47,547 bases of DNA from Planctomycetota bacterium (GTDB lineage Bacteria; Planctomycetota; UBA1135): positions 1-47,547 of the forward strand of contig JAPKEZ010000001.1 of the NCBI GenBank assembly GCA_028821845.1. Reading direction: 5' to 3'. Positions 15,888-47,547 of this stretch are shown piece by piece. A program made the translations under genes and the position numbers. Position 1 is the stretch's first letter, and every line of letters starts with the position of its first letter. Below the pieces are notes generated by a model, which saw only the letters and a list, made by a program, of their open reading frames with translations, searched no databases and had not been told where the DNA came from.

Positions 15888-15962
15888 AACCTGGTGGTGT
15901 AATCGGTAACACATCTGTTTTTGGTACAGACATTCAAGGTTCAAGTCCTTGCCGGGTTGCCA
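15888..15962 (+). tRNA. tRNA-Gln (anticodon UUG)
   Basis: Cloverleaf folded by hand. Acceptor AACCTGG/CCGGGTT, D-arm GTGT/ACAC, anticodon stem TCTGT/ACAGA with loop TT-TTG-GT, T-arm CAAGG-TTCAAGT-CCTTG, encoded CCA. Confidence 0.9.
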
Positions 15963-16016: not shown

Positions 16017-17252
16017 TTAATTAATCGGTATGGCGATTGGGTTCGATATGGTCACGTCACCGTCGGGCTCAAAGACTACTACCTGAGAATATAGCGTTCT
16101 TCCTCCGAGGCTTCCCGGAATGTAGGTGCTTATACTATGGCTACCGTCGCTGTCTTGGAATATCGGCGAGATAATATCTAGGTCGACTTCTAGCACAAGA
16201 CCGAATGGTGTATTAGATGGTCCTGGACCGTTAATCGATACCACGTAGGCGAGCCTAGAACCTGCCGGGAAGCTGGCGGTGTCGAAAGTGGCAAGTTGTC
16301 CGGCCACCATTGGAGTGATTTGTAAACTTGGTTCTGAAATTTCTACAATGCCATGGCCCATTACAGTGCCGGTGGTGTCATTCCATTTACCAGTAGTAGT
16401 CATTTGGACATAGTCTTCGTTACCAGCGTTATTAGGTTCGCCGGTATTCCAGTTTTCGTAATTAGTTACTTCGCCGTTCGACCATACAAAGTTGCCTTCG
16501 CTTTGCACATCGTTATAGCCTAACCAGAAATCGTTTGAGACGCCAGAGACGCTGCTGAACTGAGTGCGGATCCAATCGTTTTCCGACAAGTCAGTAATCG
16601 AAACAAGATGGCCTCCCATATCTTGGGCCACTGCCTCTGCTGCTGCCAAATCAGATGCGCCAAGTAGGGCGTAGGGATGGCCATTATTGGGATTCGTTGC
16701 TGTCGACAGTGTTGGCACGGGAGTGTCGTCAACAATAAAGTAGTCAACCCACCACTCGTGAGCATATGTGCCGTAGTAATGCATGCTAATGTTCACGGTC
16801 GCGCTTCCAATGAAAGCATTCAGCCCTAGATTAGGGGCATAAGGAGTATTATCGACAGTGGTGGTATCAGTCCATATAACTGTCCAGCTTACTCCGCCGT
16901 CAGTTGTCACCTCAATCGTACTAACGCCGTCACCAAATGCATTAGGGTGGTTTGCCATGTATGAAGAAAAGTAGGTCTCTCCAGCAAAATGCAAATAGGC
17001 GACAGTTGCGGTCGATAAATCTATGACAGGGCTAATTAAATAGGAGTCGCAAGTAATGCCACCGGCTTCATCTTCGTGCCATGCCCGTGTGCCTGCTGCT
17101 TGATGCCATCCCATCGTGCCAGAAGATAGAGTATTCGACCATCCTGCTGGCGGTACGCCATTGGTGAAATCTTCGGATAGATATGTTGTTTGCGCTAACA
17201 ACGTAGACGTCATTAGGCAAGAGAGTGTGGCAAGAGCGCGGAAGGAAAGCAT
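16017..17252 (-). CDS. secreted protein with a C-type lectin-like domain (EPN/WND motifs), an N-terminal jelly-roll-like domain and a C-terminal Ig-like domain
   Basis: Signal peptide MLSFRALATLSCLMTSTLLA/QT. CTLD signature GGHLVSI..ENDW...FWLGYND...EGNFVWSNG...NWNTGEPNN...EDYVQM...GKWNDT (about 16338-16685; EPN at 16431-16439). Confidence 0.8.
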   Translation of the reverse strand: MLSFRALATLSCLMTSTLLAQTTYLSEDFTNGVPPAGWSNTLSSGTMGWHQAAGTRAWHEDEAGGITCDSYLISPVIDLSTATVAYLHFAGETYFSSYMANHPNAFGDGVSTIEVTTDGGVSWTVIWTDTTTVDNTPYAPNLGLNAFIGSATVNISMHYYGTYAHEWWVDYFIVDDTPVPTLSTATNPNNGHPYALLGASDLAAAEAVAQDMGGHLVSITDLSENDWIRTQFSSVSGVSNDFWLGYNDVQSEGNFVWSNGEVTNYENWNTGEPNNAGNEDYVQMTTTGKWNDTTGTVMGHGIVEISEPSLQITPMVAGQLATFDTASFPAGSRLAYVVSINGPGPSNTPFGLVLEVDLDIISPIFQDSDGSHSISTYIPGSLGGRTLYSQVVVFEPDGDVTISNPIAIPIN

Positions 17253-22516: not shown

Positions 22517-23602
22517 TTAGTCGCGAGAGCGATGAGGAACAAAAGGCAAGTCGACACAATTGGCCGCATGAGGTTTGCCTCGGAAATCGATGCTGAATTC
22601 ACCATCGACGTTTTTAGGGACATAAGCCGTAGCGATAGGCTTGCCAAGTGCTACGGACATTGCACCACTACAAATGGTGCCTACAATTTCTCCGTCACAA
22701 AGTACGTTATAGCCTTCACGCGGAATTCGCTTCTCGCATGTGAAGCCAATAAGATGTTTGTCTGGTTCCGGCAGGGCGCGGAGAGCGTCGCCACCGATGA
22801 AGTCGCGGGTTTTCCATCCGCGTACACCGAAGCGCAAGCCGGCATCAAACGGAGTGATGCTTTCATGGATTTCGTGGCCATAAAGAGGCAATGCTGCTTC
22901 GAGGCGTAAAATATCGCGAGAACCAAGGCCAACAGGTGTGACGTCGAGGCTCATAAGAGCCATCCATAGTGGTACTATTTGCTCGGCGCTAGGAAACAAC
23001 TCATAGCCATGCTCTCCGGTATAGCCAGTGCGTGCAAAGAATAAGGTGCCGAAGTCCGTTTCTATTTCGCCGAGACCTAAGAAAGCCGGAGCAAAGTTGT
23101 CGTCACCACTAAGCTGGCGCAACACGTTTAAGGATTCAGGACCCTGCAAAGCGAGGATGCCGCCGCCGTCTTCAGTTAGGTCGCTACACTCAACACCATT
23201 GAGACGCTCGGTAAGTAAATCCCAGTCACGATCGCGGTTGGACGCGTTCACGACTAACATAAACTCGTCGTCAGCTAAACGGTAAGTGAGTAAGTCATCG
23301 AGGATGCCGGCATCGTCTTGCAACAACATGGTGTAGCGCGCCACACCTACTAGTTGATCAGTGATACATCCGCCGAGCGCATAATCTAATTTATTGGCTA
23401 CATCTTCACCGCGAAAAACAAATCGTGCCATGTGCGATACATCAAACACGCCTGATCCTTCACGAACAGCCTTCGCTTCGTTAAGGATTGAACCGTAATC
23501 AACAGGCATTGACCAACCTGCAAACGGGACAATTTTGCCACCGAGGTCTATGTGTTGTTGATGAAGTGGGGTAGAAAGTAGTTGGGATGTAGTTGTAGAC
23601 AT
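22517..23602 (-). CDS. gcvT: glycine cleavage system aminomethyltransferase T protein
   Basis: Typical GcvT sequence (TPLH..H...G.K.V.FAGW.MP..Y). I place the start at ATG 23602 (MSTTTSQ...). The track's TTG at 23617 lies inside the terminator hairpin. Confidence 0.93.
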   Translation of the reverse strand: MSTTTSQLLSTPLHQQHIDLGGKIVPFAGWSMPVDYGSILNEAKAVREGSGVFDVSHMARFVFRGEDVANKLDYALGGCITDQLVGVARYTMLLQDDAGILDDLLTYRLADDEFMLVVNASNRDRDWDLLTERLNGVECSDLTEDGGGILALQGPESLNVLRQLSGDDNFAPAFLGLGEIETDFGTLFFARTGYTGEHGYELFPSAEQIVPLWMALMSLDVTPVGLGSRDILRLEAALPLYGHEIHESITPFDAGLRFGVRGWKTRDFIGGDALRALPEPDKHLIGFTCEKRIPREGYNVLCDGEIVGTICSGAMSVALGKPIATAYVPKNVDGEFSIDFRGKPHAANCVDLPFVPHRSRD

Positions 23603-23629
23603 AAAAAAAGGCGCCAATTCTTTGGCGCC
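23603..23629 (-). terminator. intrinsic terminator forming the expression platform of the glycine riboswitch
   Basis: On the minus strand: GGCGCC-aaagaatt-GGCGCC followed by TTTTTTT, which runs directly into the gcvT ATG. Confidence 0.75.
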
Positions 23630-23663
23630 TGTAAGTTTTTTTGGGAACTGTCAGGGTTCGTCG

Positions 23664-23747
23664 AGCAGTAGTCCTTTGTACCTGAGAGTTTGGTTGCTGT
23701 TGCAACTTGCCCCTTCGGTGTCATGTAAAATGAACTCTCCTATTGCT
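23664..23747 (-). promoter_or_regulatory. glycine riboswitch aptamer (single aptamer)
   Basis: Minus-strand read: agcaataGGAGAGttcattttacatgaCACCGAAGGGGCAAgttgcaacagcaaccaaaCTCTCAGGtacaAAGGACtactgct. The conserved GGAGAG, CACCGAAGGGGCAA and CUCUCAGG..AAGGAC blocks are all present. P1 is agcaata/tactgct and the P3 hairpin is GTTGC-aaca-GCAAC. Its location upstream of gcvT is canonical. Confidence 0.88.
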
Positions 23748-23762
23748 GTCTTCCGAGGTGGT

Positions 23763-23791
23763 ATTTTCGCAATTTCTTAACGATTAGTCAA
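23763..23791 (-). promoter_or_regulatory. putative sigma70-type promoter for the riboswitch-gcv transcript
   Basis: Minus strand: TTGACT (-35; 23786-23791), 17-nt spacer, GAAAAT (-10; 23763-23768). This puts the TSS about 10 nt before aptamer stem P1. Confidence 0.45.
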
Positions 23792-23794
23792 GTA

Positions 23795-23823
23795 TTGACG
23801 GCAGCTAATGGCGCGCTTACAAT
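23795..23823 (+). promoter_or_regulatory. putative sigma70-type promoter for rpmB
   Basis: TTGACG (23795-23800), 17-nt spacer, TACAAT (23818-23823), about 30 nt upstream of the rpmB ATG. AAGAGG Shine-Dalgarno at 23841-23846. Confidence 0.55.
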
Positions 23824-23854
23824 GCTTGACCCTTCTAACAAAGAGGTACTAATA

Positions 23855-24163
23855 ATGGCAAGAACATGTGAAGTTTCAGGTAAGCGCACGAGAGTAGGTA
23901 AGTCTATTGCTCGACGTGGTTTACCGAAGAAAAAAGGTGGCGTTGGTCTCAAGACTACCGGCCATACTAAGCGGACATTTAAATCAAATGTGCAAAAGGT
24001 GCGAGTGCTACTGCCTAACGGCACAGTACGTCGTATGCACTTGGCCACATCTGTAATAAAGAAAGGTGAAATCACCGTTAAGATCGACGGTCGTATGCAG
24101 AAAATCCCACTGGTAAAAGCTCTTCGTGGTCGCCATCGTGACTACATGGCGGCAAACGCTTAA
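23855..24163 (+). CDS. rpmB: 50S ribosomal protein L28 (long form, 102 aa)
   Basis: MARTCEVSGKR..VG....H..KRTFK.N.Q.V matches the L28 N-terminus. ATG at 23855 has a good SD, and the track's upstream extension is unsupported. It carries an internal basic insertion and a C-terminal extension relative to the 78-aa E. coli protein (from memory). Confidence 0.85.
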   Translation: MARTCEVSGKRTRVGKSIARRGLPKKKGGVGLKTTGHTKRTFKSNVQKVRVLLPNGTVRRMHLATSVIKKGEITVKIDGRMQKIPLVKALRGRHRDYMAANA

Positions 24164-24178
24164 TAAATTTCTTTTCGT

Positions 24179-24230
24179 AATTCTCTCGAAAACATCAAAA
24201 TAATGATTGTTTTCGAGAGAATTTCTATTT
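24179..24230 (+). terminator. terminator hairpin after rpmB
   Basis: Perfect 16-bp inverted repeat AATTCTCTCGAAAACA / TGTTTTCGAGAGAATT (24179-24194 / 24208-24223) with a 13-nt loop, followed by a T-rich TCTATTT. Confidence 0.7.
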
Positions 24231-24365
24231 AATCTGTCGATGTGAGTAATTCAGCGACTAGATGTTGTATGTGAAAACATAAAACAAAAGTTGTTGCTCT
24301 CCATCGGCATCTCGTTCTTAAGCCAGCGAGTTTGCTGTTTCTAAGGATCCTGAATCGGAGTCAAA

Positions 24366-24707
24366 ATGGCTGCAAGAAAAAAAACAACTAAAAAGAAAGC
24401 TGCTAAAAAGAAAGCTGCTAAAAAGAAGCCTGCCAAGAAAAAGGTAGCAAAAAAGAAGCCTGCGAAAAAGAAGGCCAAGAAAAAGGTAGCGAAAAAGAAA
24501 GCTGCTAAAAAGAAGCCTGCGAAAAAGAAGGCCAAGAAGAAAGTAGCTAAGAAGAAGCCTGCGAAAAAGAAGGCCAAGAAGAAAGTAGCTAAGAAGAAAG
24601 CTGCTAAAAAGAAGCCTGCGAAAAAGAAGGCCAAGAAGAAAGTAGCTAAGAAGAAAGTAGCTAAGAAGAAAGCTGCCAAGAAGAAAGTCGTCCGCAAGAA
24701 AAAGTAG
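24366..24707 (+). CDS. Lys/Ala/Pro-rich histone H1-like basic protein (113 aa, AKKKPAKKK repeats)
   Basis: GGAG 7 nt upstream of the ATG. The composition is almost exclusively K, A, P and V in KKPAKKKAKKKVAKKKAA units. It resembles bacterial H1-like/AlgP/Hc1-type nucleoid proteins. Confidence 0.75.
   Translation: MAARKKTTKKKAAKKKAAKKKPAKKKVAKKKPAKKKAKKKVAKKKAAKKKPAKKKAKKKVAKKKPAKKKAKKKVAKKKAAKKKPAKKKAKKKVAKKKVAKKKAAKKKVVRKKK
24455..24649 (+). repeat. imperfect in-frame tandem repeats inside the H1-like gene
   Basis: The core GAAGCCTGCGAAAAAGAAGGCCAAGAA starts at 24455, 24512, 24554 and 24611 (spacings 57, 42, 57 nt). The last three copies share an identical 39-mer GAAGCCTGCGAAAAAGAAGGCCAAGAAGAAAGTAGCTAA. 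Confidence 0.9.
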
Positions 24708-24805
24708 ACTAGACGCTTCTTAATAAAAACAGCCGGCTCTGGTTCGCTGGGGCTGGCAACTCTTCAGAAATAACCTCTCTCGAACTCCCAAACACCCTGA
24801 TAATC

Positions 24806-25084
24806 ATGAATAAGCGCGAATTAATTGAAGCTGTCTGTGCAGAACTAGAAACTACTAAGTCGGCCGCAGAAGAAACTGTAAACATCGTACTCCAAGCAAT
24901 AAAATGGGGCGTCGCATCCGACGACCAAGTATCTATTGCAGGATTCGGCACTTGGTCGAAGCGCAGCCGCGCTGCACGTACCGGTCGCAATCCTCAAACA
25001 GGCGAAACTATGCAAATTAAAGCAAGTAAGTCTGTTGGTTTCAAGCCCGCTAAGGCTTGGAAGGACTCAGTAAACGGCAAGTAA
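24806..25084 (+). CDS. hup: HU-family DNA-binding protein
   Basis: MNKRELIEAV...V.IAGFGTW..R.RAARTGRNPQTGE.M.I.AS..V.FKP. Classical HU/IHF fold signature, 92 aa. Confidence 0.93.
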   Translation: MNKRELIEAVCAELETTKSAAEETVNIVLQAIKWGVASDDQVSIAGFGTWSKRSRAARTGRNPQTGETMQIKASKSVGFKPAKAWKDSVNGK

Positions 25085-25102
25085 CTCTTTTCGTTTACCC
25101 TT

Positions 25103-25135
25103 AGCCTCGGTTCATGGCGAATCGGGGCTTTTTTT
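25103..25135 (+). terminator. rho-independent terminator after hup, overlapping the metG stop codon
   Basis: AGCCTCG-13 nt loop-CGGGGCT (one G.U pair) followed by a 7-T run (25129-25135). Confidence 0.65.
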
Positions 25136-35484: not shown

Positions 35485-35565
<81 letters not shown>

Positions 35566-42834: not shown

Positions 42835-43791
42835 TTAACGTTTGCGGCGTAGAATAGCGCGGTCGATTTGCAACTCGTCGAGGTGCGGCTCGATGTCGGC
42901 TAGCCAGCGCTTGCCGTCGACGCCATAGCCTTTAGTCGGCTTAAGGTTAGGGAACTTTTCACACCAGTAATCGTTGAAGCAATCCATCATGCGTTCGCGC
43001 GACTGTTTTGCGGCAAGCGATGCTAAGGCGACAGGCAAGTGAGATAGGTCGGCGCCACTACTGAAGCGTAGCTGTACAGTGCGCTCTGAGAAATGTAAAC
43101 TGTAAGTAGAGCCTCCAGAGTTTTCGCCATGCACTTCTACTTTTTGCGGATTTAACGCTTTGTTAAGAACGTGTCGATAGTCGGTGCGTCCACCGTGTTG
43201 ATCAAGCTCGATGCGTAGTGGGGCATCGCCGGTGATCTCGATAATGTGGCGTACACACTGCATAGCGATCTCGAAATTTGTCGCGCCCTTATTACCAAGC
43301 GTGTCTAATAAATTATTGTACTCGGCAGCCGGGACCACTCGTGCGCCAAAAGCATTAAGGTTGCATCCGGCGTTGTAAAGATCGCGTTGTACTGACGCGG
43401 CATCAAGCTTGCTACGATCTACAGTTGTCGACGGGCAAAAGGGTATCGCCAAGTCTTTGAACCATGGCGCGTAGTGTAAGTCTTTAGTGGTAGGCGCCGG
43501 TTTTTCTGACAGCCAGGTGTCAAGCATGGTGTCGGTATTTAAAATTTGTCTGAAGGCGGCTACAGTTCTTTCTAGGCGTCCGCGACCGAGAGTGCCTTGA
43601 TGAACTTTCTTTGAGTCATTCACCCATAGTCTCCGTTTGTCGGTGCGTGCAGGCTTACGGTCGCAGCTTGTTGCAAGTTCTGCCCACAATTCGGTGTCGA
43701 AGTCTGGTACTCGAAATAGTGAGTAGCCATGCACCAGTGGGCCGACAAAAGGGCCATAGCCAGCCTCGTCAATGCCTGCCAAAAAAACCAT
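42835..43791 (-). CDS. type 2 RNase H (RNase HII)-like protein with a large internal insertion
   Basis: N-terminal GIDEAGYGPFVGPLV (compare GxDEAGRGxxxGP), DSKK, and C-terminal GADLSHLPVALASLAAKQSRERMM (compare ADs....VaAASI.AK..RD) and KGYG. At 318 aa it is ~100 aa longer than RNase HII. The ATG abuts the lgt stop. Confidence 0.55.
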   Translation of the reverse strand: MVFLAGIDEAGYGPFVGPLVHGYSLFRVPDFDTELWAELATSCDRKPARTDKRRLWVNDSKKVHQGTLGRGRLERTVAAFRQILNTDTMLDTWLSEKPAPTTKDLHYAPWFKDLAIPFCPSTTVDRSKLDAASVQRDLYNAGCNLNAFGARVVPAAEYNNLLDTLGNKGATNFEIAMQCVRHIIEITGDAPLRIELDQHGGRTDYRHVLNKALNPQKVEVHGENSGGSTYSLHFSERTVQLRFSSGADLSHLPVALASLAAKQSRERMMDCFNDYWCEKFPNLKPTKGYGVDGKRWLADIEPHLDELQIDRAILRRKR

Positions 43792-44742
43792 TTACTTTTT
43801 AATCTGCAGACTTGGAATCTTGCGCATCCACAGCAGTAACATTAGGCCAATGCTGAACATTACGATGCCAACTATTTGCGAAGTAGACATTAGTAGCTGG
43901 GGAGCCATGTTATCTGCACCGCTTATTAGCAGTTCGCGATATTTTTCGACGTCGGTTATTCTTCCAAGCTCGTTGGCAATGCCGAGCTCTTGCCAATGTG
44001 CAGTTACGTCTTCTGGAGTGTGACCGCTTTTGTAAATGCCACCACGTGCGACCATGTCGAATCTGAAGAATTCGATAATGTATCGCAGGACTGCGTATCC
44101 CATTAATAATATGGCACTAACTTGGCCGTGAAATTTCTTGGTTTTAAGCAGCCACTTGCCGAGAAAGAATAACGAAAAGGCCTTAGCCGACATATACAGC
44201 TGCGTCGGATGCACAGGAACAGTTGATAGCTCGCTTGGGAAAGCCGAACCCTGAGGTAAGGGGTCAGGGAAAGTAATAGCCCAAGGCAAGTCAGTAGGGG
44301 AGCCGAAATCGTCTCCGACCGCAAGGCATCCGAGGCGACCAATAGCTTGCCCTAGGAAGCCCGCAGTGATCCCGTAGTCGAGAGTTTGCCACTTGCACAT
44401 GCCTAGCTGGTTTGCCTTTATCATGCCGAGGGTGATGGCGCCGATGAGACCGCCGTACATCACTAGTCCGCCTTCCCATATTTTCAGGATATCGCCAGGA
44501 TTTGCCATATAGTGCCCGGCATTTACTAGGACGAAGGCAATTCGAGCACCAAGGATGACTCCGATAAGAACCCACCAACTTACATCAGCGAAGTTCTCAG
44601 GGTCGTTCTTGAGATCGCTGCCGTATTTGCCAGCCAGCTTGGATCCGACTGAGACACCAATAAGGAAACCAGTTGCTACCAACAAGCCAAAGGCGCGAAG
44701 GGGGAAATCAACGAAAGGGATAGTGAAGAGTTCAGGCCACAC
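43792..44742 (-). CDS. lgt: prolipoprotein diacylglyceryl transferase
   Basis: Polytopic membrane protein. Contains the GRLGCLAVGDDFG region (compare GR.GNF.NGE..G) and VHPTQLY, plus a C-terminal extension. Confidence 0.85.
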   Translation of the reverse strand: MWPELFTIPFVDFPLRAFGLLVATGFLIGVSVGSKLAGKYGSDLKNDPENFADVSWWVLIGVILGARIAFVLVNAGHYMANPGDILKIWEGGLVMYGGLIGAITLGMIKANQLGMCKWQTLDYGITAGFLGQAIGRLGCLAVGDDFGSPTDLPWAITFPDPLPQGSAFPSELSTVPVHPTQLYMSAKAFSLFFLGKWLLKTKKFHGQVSAILLMGYAVLRYIIEFFRFDMVARGGIYKSGHTPEDVTAHWQELGIANELGRITDVEKYRELLISGADNMAPQLLMSTSQIVGIVMFSIGLMLLLWMRKIPSLQIKK

Positions 44743-44783
44743 GACGATATTCTACCCAAGTTTTGATTACAATAGGACTAGAG

Positions 44784-46559
44784 ATGCACACCTTTCACAT
44801 ACCGGTCATGGGAACAGGATTCACGGTTGACACTCCTTTAAAAGTAGCGCGATTTGGCATTGCTTCAGTAGTATCTCTGGTTGATGACATATTTCTCGAA
44901 CAGGTTCGCAAGAGGATAGCGCTTGATCACAATAGAACATTCGTTGCTATCGACGATTACGAAGAAGATTCGCGAGCTCGGCGTATCACGGCATATCTAG
45001 ATTTGCTGCAAGAACTTATAGCCGAGCAGTTTGATGCGCTACGTAAGTCGTCATTTGAAGATGACGGTGAAATAGTGCGCTATTGCGAGTTGTTGCCTGA
45101 TTGCGAGTTGCGCAATAAGTACCAGCAGATGCTTGATACTGAAAATTCAGATACGCGTCTGCAATTACAAAGTGAAATACGCGCGTCGATTATTCCAGGT
45201 CCGATTGATGTCAACATAATGACAAAACTCGATCGCGACTTTGATCGTCGTGGTGTTGAGTACCCTAAAAATGGTTCCGATGCTTTAAGTGCACTGCGTG
45301 GCTTTATGAACAGCAAGGTTGATGGTGCAGTAGTTTTGTCTGCGGGAATGAATCGCCGGCTATTTAGCTATATAGCTACTTTCGATGCAGCATACCCAGA
45401 CGCAAGCGGTCATGTTGCTAAGCGTATAATTTTGAAAGTTAGTGATTACCGTTCGGCATTGGTGCAGGGGAAAATGTTCGCGAAGAATGGTTTGCATATT
45501 GCTGAATACCGAGTCGAGTCAGGTCTCAATTGCGGAGGACATGCCTTTGGCGGCAAAGGCCAATTGATGGGGCCCGTGCTAAGCGAGTTTCGTGACAACA
45601 AGCAGCAACTGATAAACACATTGCGCGAAATAATTGTCAAGTCACATGAAATTAGCGAACGCAATAATTGTGGTAAACCGCCAGCAGCGAGGATCACAGC
45701 TCAAGGTGGTATTGGTGACTTCGCAGAAGACTCTTTATTGCGTGAAGTTTATTCGGTAGACGGTACCGGTTGGGGGAGCTCATTTTTGTTCGTCCCAGAA
45801 GTCACCAATGTCGACGATAAAAGTTTGGTCAAAATTATTGCCGCAAAGGCTAAAGATATTTTCTTGAGCCCTTCATCCCCCTTGGGCGTCCCTTTCTGGA
45901 CGATGCGCACTTCAGCAAGTGAAGACCGGCGCCGACAGAAAATAATCGATGGTAAGCCAGGCTCCAGTTGTCCTAAAGGATTTTTGGCTGCCGACACTGA
46001 GTTTACGAAAACTCCGATTTGCACGGCAAGCCATGCTTATCAAAAACGCAAACTTAAGCAGGTTAAAGTAGCTGAAATGGCATTTGACGATCATCAGACG
46101 GCCGAGCAGGCAGTGTTTGAGAAGGCGTGTATTTGCCACGATTTAGCAGGAGTGGCAACTATCTCGATGGACATCGACCCGGATGCTCAGGCTTCGGTTT
46201 GTTGCGGGCCCAATGCCGCTTATTTTGAGGGCACAGCCACACTCAAGCAAATGGCCTCCCATATTTACGGACGCCTACGCTTGCCGTTAAACAGCGAGCG
46301 TCCGCATATGTTCATTAACGAGTTGCATTTGAGTCTAGATTTTTTGCGTGGTGACATTGCGAAGTGCCGCGAAAACTTTTCAGAACGCATGATGAAGTCA
46401 GTTAATGATTGTCTGGAAAACCTTGAGAAGGGCGTCGAGCACTATCGCGAGTTGGCGGCTAATAACCTGTCTAAGAGCCATGAATCTTTTCTGCAGGGCC
46501 TTGAGTTAATTCAACAAGAATTGACCGAAATAAAGTCGAAGTCAGCTTCTTTTGTGTAG
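44784..46559 (+). CDS. uncharacterised protein with an NMO/FabK/PfaD-like (FMN TIM-barrel) core and a Cys-rich C-terminal region
   Basis: HIPVMGTGFTVDTPLKVARFGIASVVS resembles the N-terminal strand/helix of nitronate monooxygenase-type enzymes. ESGLNCGGHAFGG (45516-45551) resembles their E(A/S)GGH.G motif. ITAQGGIGD...VDGTGWGSSF (from 45699) resembles AAGGI....GT.F. Cys cluster at 45969-46205. I prefer ATG 44784 over the track's TTG 44763. Confidence 0.55.
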   Translation: MHTFHIPVMGTGFTVDTPLKVARFGIASVVSLVDDIFLEQVRKRIALDHNRTFVAIDDYEEDSRARRITAYLDLLQELIAEQFDALRKSSFEDDGEIVRYCELLPDCELRNKYQQMLDTENSDTRLQLQSEIRASIIPGPIDVNIMTKLDRDFDRRGVEYPKNGSDALSALRGFMNSKVDGAVVLSAGMNRRLFSYIATFDAAYPDASGHVAKRIILKVSDYRSALVQGKMFAKNGLHIAEYRVESGLNCGGHAFGGKGQLMGPVLSEFRDNKQQLINTLREIIVKSHEISERNNCGKPPAARITAQGGIGDFAEDSLLREVYSVDGTGWGSSFLFVPEVTNVDDKSLVKIIAAKAKDIFLSPSSPLGVPFWTMRTSASEDRRRQKIIDGKPGSSCPKGFLAADTEFTKTPICTASHAYQKRKLKQVKVAEMAFDDHQTAEQAVFEKACICHDLAGVATISMDIDPDAQASVCCGPNAAYFEGTATLKQMASHIYGRLRLPLNSERPHMFINELHLSLDFLRGDIAKCRENFSERMMKSVNDCLENLEKGVEHYRELAANNLSKSHESFLQGLELIQQELTEIKSKSASFV

Positions 46560-46561
46560 CT

Positions 46562-47350
46562 GTGAGCGAGCAACCACATCAGTTTCCGGGTAGCCCACAA
46601 CGATATTTGTTTGAAGGGCGTTACCGCAAGTTGGTGCGCGGTCTGCCGCAGACCATACTCTTCTGTCCTGAGTGCAAAGGGCGTGGCTGCGATCATTGCG
46701 AAGGCTTCGGTCGGCTGGTGCGAGACTCGGTGCAAGATCTAATCGCTCGCGTCGCAATGCCACGGTTTAAGGCGCGCCGCAACAAATTTCATGGCGCGGG
46801 GCGTGAAGATATCGACGTCCTAATGCTTGGCAACGGTCGTCCTTTCGTTTTTGAAATGACTAAGGTGAAGCGCGAGGACATCGACCTCGAAGAATTGTCC
46901 GTCGCAATTAACGAGCGTTCAGAAGGCCGAATAGAGGTTTTTGATCTTAAACCGTGTGCGCGTGAGCGAGTGGCAGAAATCAAACAAGCAACTTGCGAAA
47001 AAGAATATCTAGCGCGCATCGAGTTTAGTGATAGCGACTTGGATTTCACTGCCATCGATGAAAAGCTCGATTCCATCAAAGAGGGTGGCCGCTGGGTTTT
47101 GGCGCAGGGCACTCCGACTCGGGTGATGCATCGTCGCGGTAAAGATATCGTGCGCGAACGTTGGCTAGAGTTGCTATCGTACGAAGCAGATGGCGATGCA
47201 CGGTTGTTGAAATTGCGTTCTCAGCATGGCACTTACATCAAAGAAGCTATTTCTTCTGATGATGGTCGCACTAAAGACTCATTCACTGAGTTGCTCGGAG
47301 TTGCGTGCGTGTGCGCTGAACTAGATGTACTTGGCGTATTTTTAGATTAA
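46562..47350 (+). CDS. Pus10-like pseudouridine synthase catalytic domain protein (no THUMP domain)
   Basis: GRYRKLVRGLPQT, a CPECKGRGCDHC zinc knuckle, FHGAGREDIDVLMLGNGRPFVFE (putative catalytic Asp at 46808-46810) and GTYIKEAISSDDGRTKDSFTELLG all match Pus10 hallmark motifs as I recall them. The GTG start lies 3 nt after the upstream stop. Confidence 0.7.
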   Translation: MSEQPHQFPGSPQRYLFEGRYRKLVRGLPQTILFCPECKGRGCDHCEGFGRLVRDSVQDLIARVAMPRFKARRNKFHGAGREDIDVLMLGNGRPFVFEMTKVKREDIDLEELSVAINERSEGRIEVFDLKPCARERVAEIKQATCEKEYLARIEFSDSDLDFTAIDEKLDSIKEGGRWVLAQGTPTRVMHRRGKDIVRERWLELLSYEADGDARLLKLRSQHGTYIKEAISSDDGRTKDSFTELLGVACVCAELDVLGVFLD

Positions 47351-47547
47351 CTAAAAGGCTGCCCCAGTAATAGTCGCTTGGCAGACAGGTTCGCCAGCAG
47401 CAGTCATCATTTGGCCTTCCCACTTGAAGTAAGGAATGCGCGGAGATGCCTTAACTATTCTCCCGGCGACGATTAGGTCGGTGTTCGACTCAACAGGCTT
47501 TCTAAAGCGAACGCCGTCGACAGCGCCGAAGCCCATGAAAACGTCTT
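47351..47547 (-). CDS. hotdog-fold dehydratase (FabZ/FabA-like), 3' part only; the 5' end is outside the window
   Basis: C-terminal sequence ..DVFMGFGAVDGVRFRKPVESNTDLIVAGRIV...WEGQMMTAAGEPVCQATITGAAF fits the FabZ pattern (..vrFr.pV.pgD.L....). The frame stays open to the window edge. Its stop abuts the Pus10-like stop. Confidence 0.6.
   Translation of the reverse strand, partial: DVFMGFGAVDGVRFRKPVESNTDLIVAGRIVKASPRIPYFKWEGQMMTAAGEPVCQATITGAAF

Follow-up and report, generated by a model that had tools for sequence, protein, structure and literature searches.

Pus10, described as the sole THUMP-related pseudouridine synthase, is not found in Bacteria according to reviews and primary papers to 2025 (PMC7912444, PMC9957541, PMC6380271, PMC12710931), and bacteria are said to rely on TruB and TrmA. 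In MjPus10, the archaeal enzyme of Methanocaldococcus jannaschii, a core of R273, D275 (the catalytic residue), D277, Y339, I412, K413 and L440 was tested by mutagenesis and matters for activity (Joardar et al. 2013, PMC3753934), and positive determinants of pseudouridine formation at position 54 (Psi54) are two segments, ffl1 (Cys227-Arg231) and ffl2 (Cys238-Val249), together with His376/Arg377 of the thumb (PMC3753934). Here we describe a Pus10-type gene from a planctomycete that encodes the catalytic domain only. It lies near the end of a 47,547-nucleotide stretch of Planctomycetota contig JAPKEZ010000001.1 (assembly GCA_028821845.1, positions 1 to 47,547, forward strand), which is referred to throughout as the window. 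The open reading frame (ORF), at 46562-47350 on the forward strand, starts with GTG, ends in a stop codon and encodes 262 amino acids (aa); an in-frame stop directly 5' of the GTG leaves no possible upstream extension. Judged from its sequence, the product is probably a functional, stand-alone Pus10 catalytic domain of archaeal derivation, likely a pseudouridine synthase acting on U55 of the tRNA T-loop and probably on U54 as well.

Membership in the Pus10 catalytic domain family is confirmed by both profile and fold, beyond chance. Against Pfam, the protein returns a single strong match to PF21238 (Pus10_C; E = 3.5e-52), in which residues 18-259 cover positions 3-231 of a 232-position profile. 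Against the Pus10 equivalog of NCBIfam (TIGR01213), it scores 246.4 bits relative to a cutoff of 200 bits, and the match spans profile positions 162-401 of 402. Human PUS10 (2v9k) was the sole match in a sequence search of solved structures (E = 1.5e-25, chain residues 293-522). An AlphaFold2 model of the protein, built on a 30-sequence alignment of its clade of short relatives (the short clade, delimited below), reached a mean predicted local distance difference test (pLDDT) of 85 and a predicted template modelling score (pTM) of 0.77, and its top Foldseek match in the Protein Data Bank (PDB) was again 2v9k (E = 2e-22, TMq 0.72, 32% identity). The runner-up family, TruA, stood 14 orders of magnitude behind (E = 4e-8), with TruB/Cbf5 at about 1e-6. 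Likewise, an hhalign comparison of the short clade with a profile of 25 full-length archaeal Pus10 sequences gave E = 2e-84 with 39% identity, the aligned part of a 406-aa Methanobacterium protein being residues 161-406. The preliminary description of this gene had identified the product as the catalytic half of Pus10, and that identification withstands the profile and structure searches as run: Pus10 was recovered first by both, and the catalytic Asp and the RNA-loop residues align. An exact-sequence lookup of the protein found no record.

All four motifs that had been singled out beforehand are present at the residues and nucleotides given for them, i.e., GRYRKLVRGLPQT (aa 19-31; 46616-46654), CPECKGRGCDHC (aa 35-46; 46664-46699), FHGAGREDIDVLMLGNGRPFVFE (aa 76-98, with the putative catalytic D83 at 46808-46810) and GTYIKEAISSDDGRTKDSFTELLG (aa 223-246). 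Together with the remaining conserved positions, they supply the core of R-x-D-x-D, Tyr, hydrophobic-Lys pair and Leu and the forefinger and thumb loops (GRYRK..PQT, the four cysteines and TPxRVxHRR). MjPus10 numbering was mapped onto the protein by motif and spacing; the published residue numbers matched no retrieved sequence. The catalytic motif R81-E-D83-I-D85 (46802-46816), which aligns with GREDVDV of human PUS10, corresponds to R273/D275/D277. Y149 (47006-47008) is the equivalent of Y339 by alignment column, a column occupied by Tyr in each of the 283 prokaryotic sequences aligned and in human PUS10. In the thumb loop, T184-P-T-R-V-M-H190-R191-R192 (47111-47137), the His-Arg "hook" of H190/R191 matches H376/R377. 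G-T-Y-I226-K227-E (47228-47245) provides the hydrophobic residue and the Lys that salt-bridges the catalytic Asp (I412/K413), and L254 of L254-D255 (47321-47326) is the conserved core Leu (L440), the 27 residues from K227 to L254 equalling the spacing of K413 to L440. The short clade shows little or no variation at R81, D83, D85, Y149, H190, R191, R192, Y225, I226, K227 and L254, and the catalytic and loop positions are equally conserved in 165 full-length archaeal representatives.

The forefinger loop is retained in the same way. Within its entry motif, G19, R20, Y21, K23, R26, P29, Q30 and T31 are invariant across the clade, and archaeal and human Pus10 conserve them too. The motif is followed by a CxxC-x4-CxxC putative zinc knuckle whose cysteines (C35, C38, C43 and C46) are invariant throughout the short clade and match the ffl1/ffl2 cysteine segments of MjPus10 by position; the knuckle presumably binds zinc. 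The same motif occurs in 128 of the 150 top representative homologs, full-length archaeal forms included, which rules out a bacterial innovation and makes the knuckle an ancestral feature of the archaeal forefinger.

Relative to the archaeal MjPus10 type (TIGR01213, COG1258), the window protein matches along the full extent of the catalytic domain (39% identity between profiles) and shares the R-x-D-x-D, Tyr, Ile-Lys and Leu core, the forefinger CxxC-x4-CxxC and the thumb His-Arg hook; it differs in being encoded by a bacterial gene and in lacking the first ~160 residues (a Cys4 zinc ribbon and the THUMP domain). Human PUS10 (2V9K), the best structural match, aligns at all core residues, but its N terminus carries a large accessory domain that includes THUMP, and it is gapped at the C35-C46 columns, i.e., it has no knuckle. 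PfuPus10, from Pyrococcus furiosus, belongs to the same family and has the same catalytic core; unlike the window protein, this Psi55-only enzyme is without the ffl1/ffl2 segments and carries Asn-Ser in place of the thumb His-Arg. Since both loops are in the MjPus10 state, the window protein is nearer to the dual-site enzymes than to PfuPus10. TruB, the bacterial enzyme, shares the superfamily fold and likely the same target region (the T-loop), but it is a different family with 10-12% identity, a C-terminal PUA domain and a His43-type readout, and no TruB family of Pfam or NCBIfam matched the 262-aa protein.

The gene is one member of a conserved bacterial family. Among 5.8 billion proteins searched, 4,174 homologs were recovered; the top 120 are 165-339 aa long and contain PF21238 only, and all whose source is named come from metagenome-assembled genomes (MAGs) of Planctomycetota. 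Several of the 120 had previously been named "tRNA pseudouridine(54/55) synthase Pus10" by PGAP or IMG. The window gene is not a one-off. These pipelines apply the equivalog label despite the missing domain, and the function so named is a prediction from sequence. A scan of GTDB species genomes identified at least 592 with a Pus10 relative. The best 80 of these, which are the 80 loci of all locus counts below, are all bacterial: 77 are labelled as planctomycetes of some rank, one is labelled Myxococcota and two are labelled only "bacterium". The Myxococcota-labelled MAG (JBLINB010000001.1) has a syntenic locus of the Planctomycetota type and an 87%-identical Pus10, so its label is likely a taxonomic error. 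The best 80 also include the closed chromosome of a cultured strain, Rohdeia mirabilis Pla163, from the Saltatorellus lineage, a deep branch for which the name "Saltatorellota" has also been put forward (GTDB classes UBA1135, UBA8108 and GCA-002687715).

Within this lineage, pus10 is an old, vertically inherited and selectively maintained resident. Its motifs are intact across a clade that spans 45-92% identity, and dN/dS between the window gene and its closest ortholog is 0.066 at a dS of 0.56. Its chromosomal setting is conserved as well. Upstream and divergent lies lgt (prolipoprotein diacylglyceryl transferase; 43792-44742, reverse strand; PF01790 in orthologous loci), followed by rnhB (RNase HII; 42835-43791, reverse strand); downstream and convergent is the 3' part of a FabA/ApeI-like dehydratase gene (47351-47536, reverse strand) that runs off the window end. 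A divergent lgt is found within 3 kb upstream of pus10, usually at less than 400 bp, in 62 of the 80 loci, rnhB lies beyond lgt in 62, and the FabA/ApeI-like gene is within 3 kb downstream in 55. This rnhB-lgt / pus10 / fabA-like order persists down to 45% Pus10 identity. It is the synteny, together with the low dN/dS, that marks the gene as old, vertically inherited and functional, and it agrees with the earlier impression of a housekeeping setting and no island.

The absence of the N-terminal region, also reported in the preliminary description, is equally consistent. A Pfam scan of the 262-aa protein found no match to the THUMP families PF22023 and PF02926, only 15-17 non-conserved residues precede the catalytic domain across the clade, and in the hhalign comparison the first ~160 archaeal residues have no counterpart, the alignment beginning at archaeal residue 161.

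To place the clade, an exhaustive HMMER search of 1.84 billion representatives was carried out, giving 2,052 homologs at E<=1e-3, and a bootstrapped neighbor-joining (NJ) tree was built from 296 catalytic domains. The short clade, comprised of the window protein, 29 further Planctomycetota sequences and seven other short representatives, has 100% bootstrap support. Its neighbors tend to have reduced N-termini: across bootstrap replicates, forms with ~100 N-terminal residues make up on average 75% of the sister group versus a background of 31%. They include DPANN sequences labelled Diapherotrites and, as a second bacterial group, proteins of 340-370 aa (P0288, labelled Planctomycetota, and P0222, P0309 and P0399), whose loci are mutually syntenic and lie beside rho.

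This second group, from comparison of its sequences and predicted structure, keeps a THUMP-type domain and is without the N-terminal zinc ribbon. PF22023 matches are weak, but hhalign covers archaeal residues 71-406, and an AlphaFold2 model (pLDDT 95) aligns to 2v9k over 417 columns versus 256 for the short form. These ~345-aa proteins share the catalytic domain, the zinc knuckle and a bacterial context with the window clade, from which they differ in the retained THUMP-type domain, the conserved locus beside rho and a thumb position equivalent to H190 that is mostly Arg. At least two Pus10 architectures are thus present in bacteria, one that pairs THUMP with the catalytic domain and one that consists of the catalytic domain only, and with the archaeal form these make a series: zinc ribbon, THUMP and catalytic domain in Archaea; THUMP and catalytic domain in the ~345-aa bacterial proteins; and the catalytic domain in the window clade. 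Because Pus10 is near-universal and diverse in Archaea, the simplest reading is that bacterial Pus10 is of archaeal origin, and the direction of transfer would then be from Archaea to bacteria.

Three second-group loci encode Pus10 proteins of 343-366 aa downstream of rho (L086, 10001-11032; L087, 10001-11050; L089, 8001-9101). In two of the three, rsmG/gidB is close by, and acyl-CoA dehydrogenase and ABC transporter genes lie farther out. Six Pus10_C-only sequences of 248-274 aa (P0136, P0139, P0190, P0245, P0259 and P0260) are placed outside the planctomycetal clade by the tree; they may have become THUMP-less independently, possibly in archaea, or may be fragments that come from short contigs. 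Another likely taxonomic mislabel is P0363, a full-length Pus10 that resembles those of Methanobacteriales but is encoded on an 8.5-kb contig labelled Candidatus Bipolaricaulota.

Both the catalytic activity and the RNA target of the 262-aa protein are read from its conserved residues, and the history and mechanism that we propose are conditional on that reading. Long ago, an ancestor of the Saltatorellus/Planctomycetota lineage would have received a Pus10 gene from Archaea; vertical descent at one fixed place in the chromosome would have followed, and this clade would have shed the entire N-terminal accessory region (zinc ribbon and THUMP). The enzyme is predicted to isomerize a uridine of the tRNA T-loop, namely U55 and, given the MjPus10-type determinants, probably U54. 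The catalytic domain may recognize the T-stem-loop directly, with the helix pinched between two loops, the forefinger, which its putative Cys4 zinc knuckle would stiffen, and the thumb, which bears the His-Arg hook; R81 would assist in flipping the target U into the pocket that D83, Y149, I226/K227 and L254 make up. Wild-type MjPus10 forms both Psi54 and Psi55 in a 17-mer T-stem-loop (PMC3753934), and human PUS10 does not require the CCA end (PMC9957541), which together make it plausible that THUMP is dispensable. The presence and invariance of the MjPus10-type forefinger and thumb states argue for Psi54 competence, and MjPus10 expressed in E. coli out-competes TrmA for U54. Two tRNA genes of the window, tRNA-Gln(UUG) at 15888-15962 (forward strand) and tRNA-Pro(UGG) at 35489-35565 (reverse strand), have encoded CCA ends and canonical G53-U54-U55-C56-R57-A58 T-loops; with these GUUCRA T-loops, they are presumptive substrates.

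Several points weigh against the proposal of an archaeal-derived, self-sufficient T-loop enzyme. Bootstrap support for the sister group of the short clade is at most 2.5% in the NJ tree, so the tree fixes neither the donor nor the order in which domains were lost; of the phylogenetic question raised in the preliminary description, a distinct bacterial clade was recovered but an archaeal donor was not. Parts of the tRNA outside the T-arm stabilize the archaeal Pus10-RNA complex (PMC3753934), and the N-terminal domain of archaeal Pus10 contributes to binding and robustness as summarized in a review (Kamalampeta 2013, cited there). By analogy, the catalytic domain alone might be weak or relaxed in specificity. 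No compensation for the lost THUMP domain by extra positive charge was seen: the catalytic domain averages a net charge of +7.2 across the short clade versus +8.0 in full-length forms, and that of the window protein is -2. Moreover, if the host genomes encode TruB and TrmA/TrmFO, Psi55 would be redundant and Psi54 would compete with 5-methyluridine (m5U54). A tblastn search with E. coli TruB over the window and 84 loci (1.37 Mb, about 0.4% of each genome) gave no match, and coverage on this scale is uninformative on truB genome-wide.

A bolder extension, and a rather doubtful one, is that the lineage uses its minimal Pus10 for archaeal-type Psi54, with or without Psi55, possibly having lost TrmA/TrmFO and/or TruB. 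If true, no bacterial group before it would have been found to carry Psi54 in place of m5U54, and the Pus10 catalytic domain alone would suffice for site-specific T-loop modification.

Alternatively, the enzyme may have been retargeted, such that the catalytic domain, having lost the THUMP module by which the acceptor end is docked, pseudouridylates rRNA, tmRNA or other T-loop-like hairpins and TruB keeps tRNA Psi55. THUMP-type accessory domains are thought to determine substrate choice, TruB is already the normal enzyme of bacteria, and the short clade is a distinct and long-separated branch, all of which would fit. We nevertheless consider retargeting unlikely: the forefinger and thumb residues by which the T-arm is read show exactly the conservation of the tRNA-specific archaeal enzymes, the TIGR01213 score exceeds the equivalog cutoff, and neither the clade alignment nor hhalign reveals a clade-specific insertion or new domain.

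Another route around the missing THUMP domain would be a two-piece enzyme, in which a separately encoded protein provides the docking function in trans, as other THUMP systems act as complexes (Tan1-Kre33 and THUMPD1-NAT10). The window has one co-directional neighbor to offer, a 598-aa ORF (ORF598; 44763-46559, forward strand) inserted between lgt and pus10, whose TAG stop (46557-46559) lies 2 nt before the pus10 GTG, so that the two genes are translationally coupled here. ORF598, however, is a sub-lineage-specific insertion present in only three of the 80 loci, the three closest (L005-L007), and in most of the clade pus10 stands alone between a divergent and a convergent gene. Its family, with at least 8,000 clusters of ~600-aa proteins, is spread at 50-60% identity across Krumholzibacteriia, Gemmatimonadales, Zixibacteria, Planctomycetota and others. 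This rarity beside pus10 and the spread over unrelated phyla rule out ORF598 as a Pus10 partner. A split N-terminal module was also sought by tblastn with bacterial and archaeal Pus10 N-termini in the window and 84 short-clade loci (~20 kb per genome); the positive control was detected, but no such module (best E = 0.1). The partner suggested in the preliminary description hence finds no support in gene context, and we regard a two-piece enzyme as quite improbable.

ORF598 itself had no match in Pfam, NCBIfam, the PDB or PADLOC, and pus10 had none in PADLOC. The ORF598 family is highly conserved, widespread and uncharacterized, and it carries a "SGLNCGGHAFGGKG" motif.

A decaying relic or non-catalytic RNA binder, left over from a transferred gene, might be suspected given that ~40% of the canonical protein is missing and that human nuclear PUS10 has non-catalytic roles. 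Purifying selection at the dN/dS reported above, invariance of D83 and all core residues in more than 30 sequences at 45-92% identity, intact ORFs across 80 species and a confidently predicted fold make this highly improbable. An artefact, whether an archaeal contig placed in a bacterial MAG by faulty binning or a gene call truncated at its 5' end, can be practically dismissed: most relatives are MAG-derived and the "Bipolaricaulota" full-length Pus10 resembles mis-binning, but the window gene is embedded among bacterial housekeeping genes over 47 kb, its locus recurs in the closed chromosome of a cultured strain and in a 7.06-Mb contig, an in-frame stop is directly upstream, and short N-termini are conserved across the clade.

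The bacterial host proposed in the preliminary description is borne out both by the orthologs, that of Rohdeia mirabilis Pla163 included, and by the other products of the window, which are those of a bacterial chromosome: Rho, TrxB, CoaE, TatC, CinA, FolA, ThyA, LipB, GcvP1/P2/T, MetG and PyrG, and further KdsB, AnmK, EF-G, S1, RnhB and Lgt. The same description held Pus10 to be an archaeal and eukaryotic enzyme that bacteria lack, and the literature cited at the outset does say so; its occurrence here contradicts that distribution, and a conserved bacterial Pus10 family under purifying selection corrects it. Our literature search found no paper naming Pus10 together with Planctomycetota. What is new is an architectural and phylogenetic variant of a known enzyme family, moderately surprising, and not a categorically new system. 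It would also be an example of an old archaea-to-bacteria transfer of a tRNA-modification enzyme. The zinc ribbon, THUMP and catalytic domain series is a natural deletion series with which the roles of the zinc ribbon and THUMP in substrate docking and in the choice of site 54 versus 55 can be probed, the family includes a cultivable organism in Rohdeia mirabilis, and the prediction follows that some bacterial tRNAs may carry Psi54.

Elsewhere in the window, Rfam model RF00504 (61 bits) identifies a glycine riboswitch, called as one aptamer, at 23659-23752 on the reverse strand, directly upstream of gcvT (22517-23617, reverse strand) and of gcvP1/P2. The ~1.4-kb interval from there to metG (23753-25133) is without an ORF of at least 150 aa, and the 2-kb composition window around it has the highest AT skew of the whole stretch (0.145). 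A C-type lectin domain (PF00059, E = 3e-13), which is more usual in animal than in bacterial proteins, is present in a 411-aa protein encoded at 16017-17252 (reverse strand).

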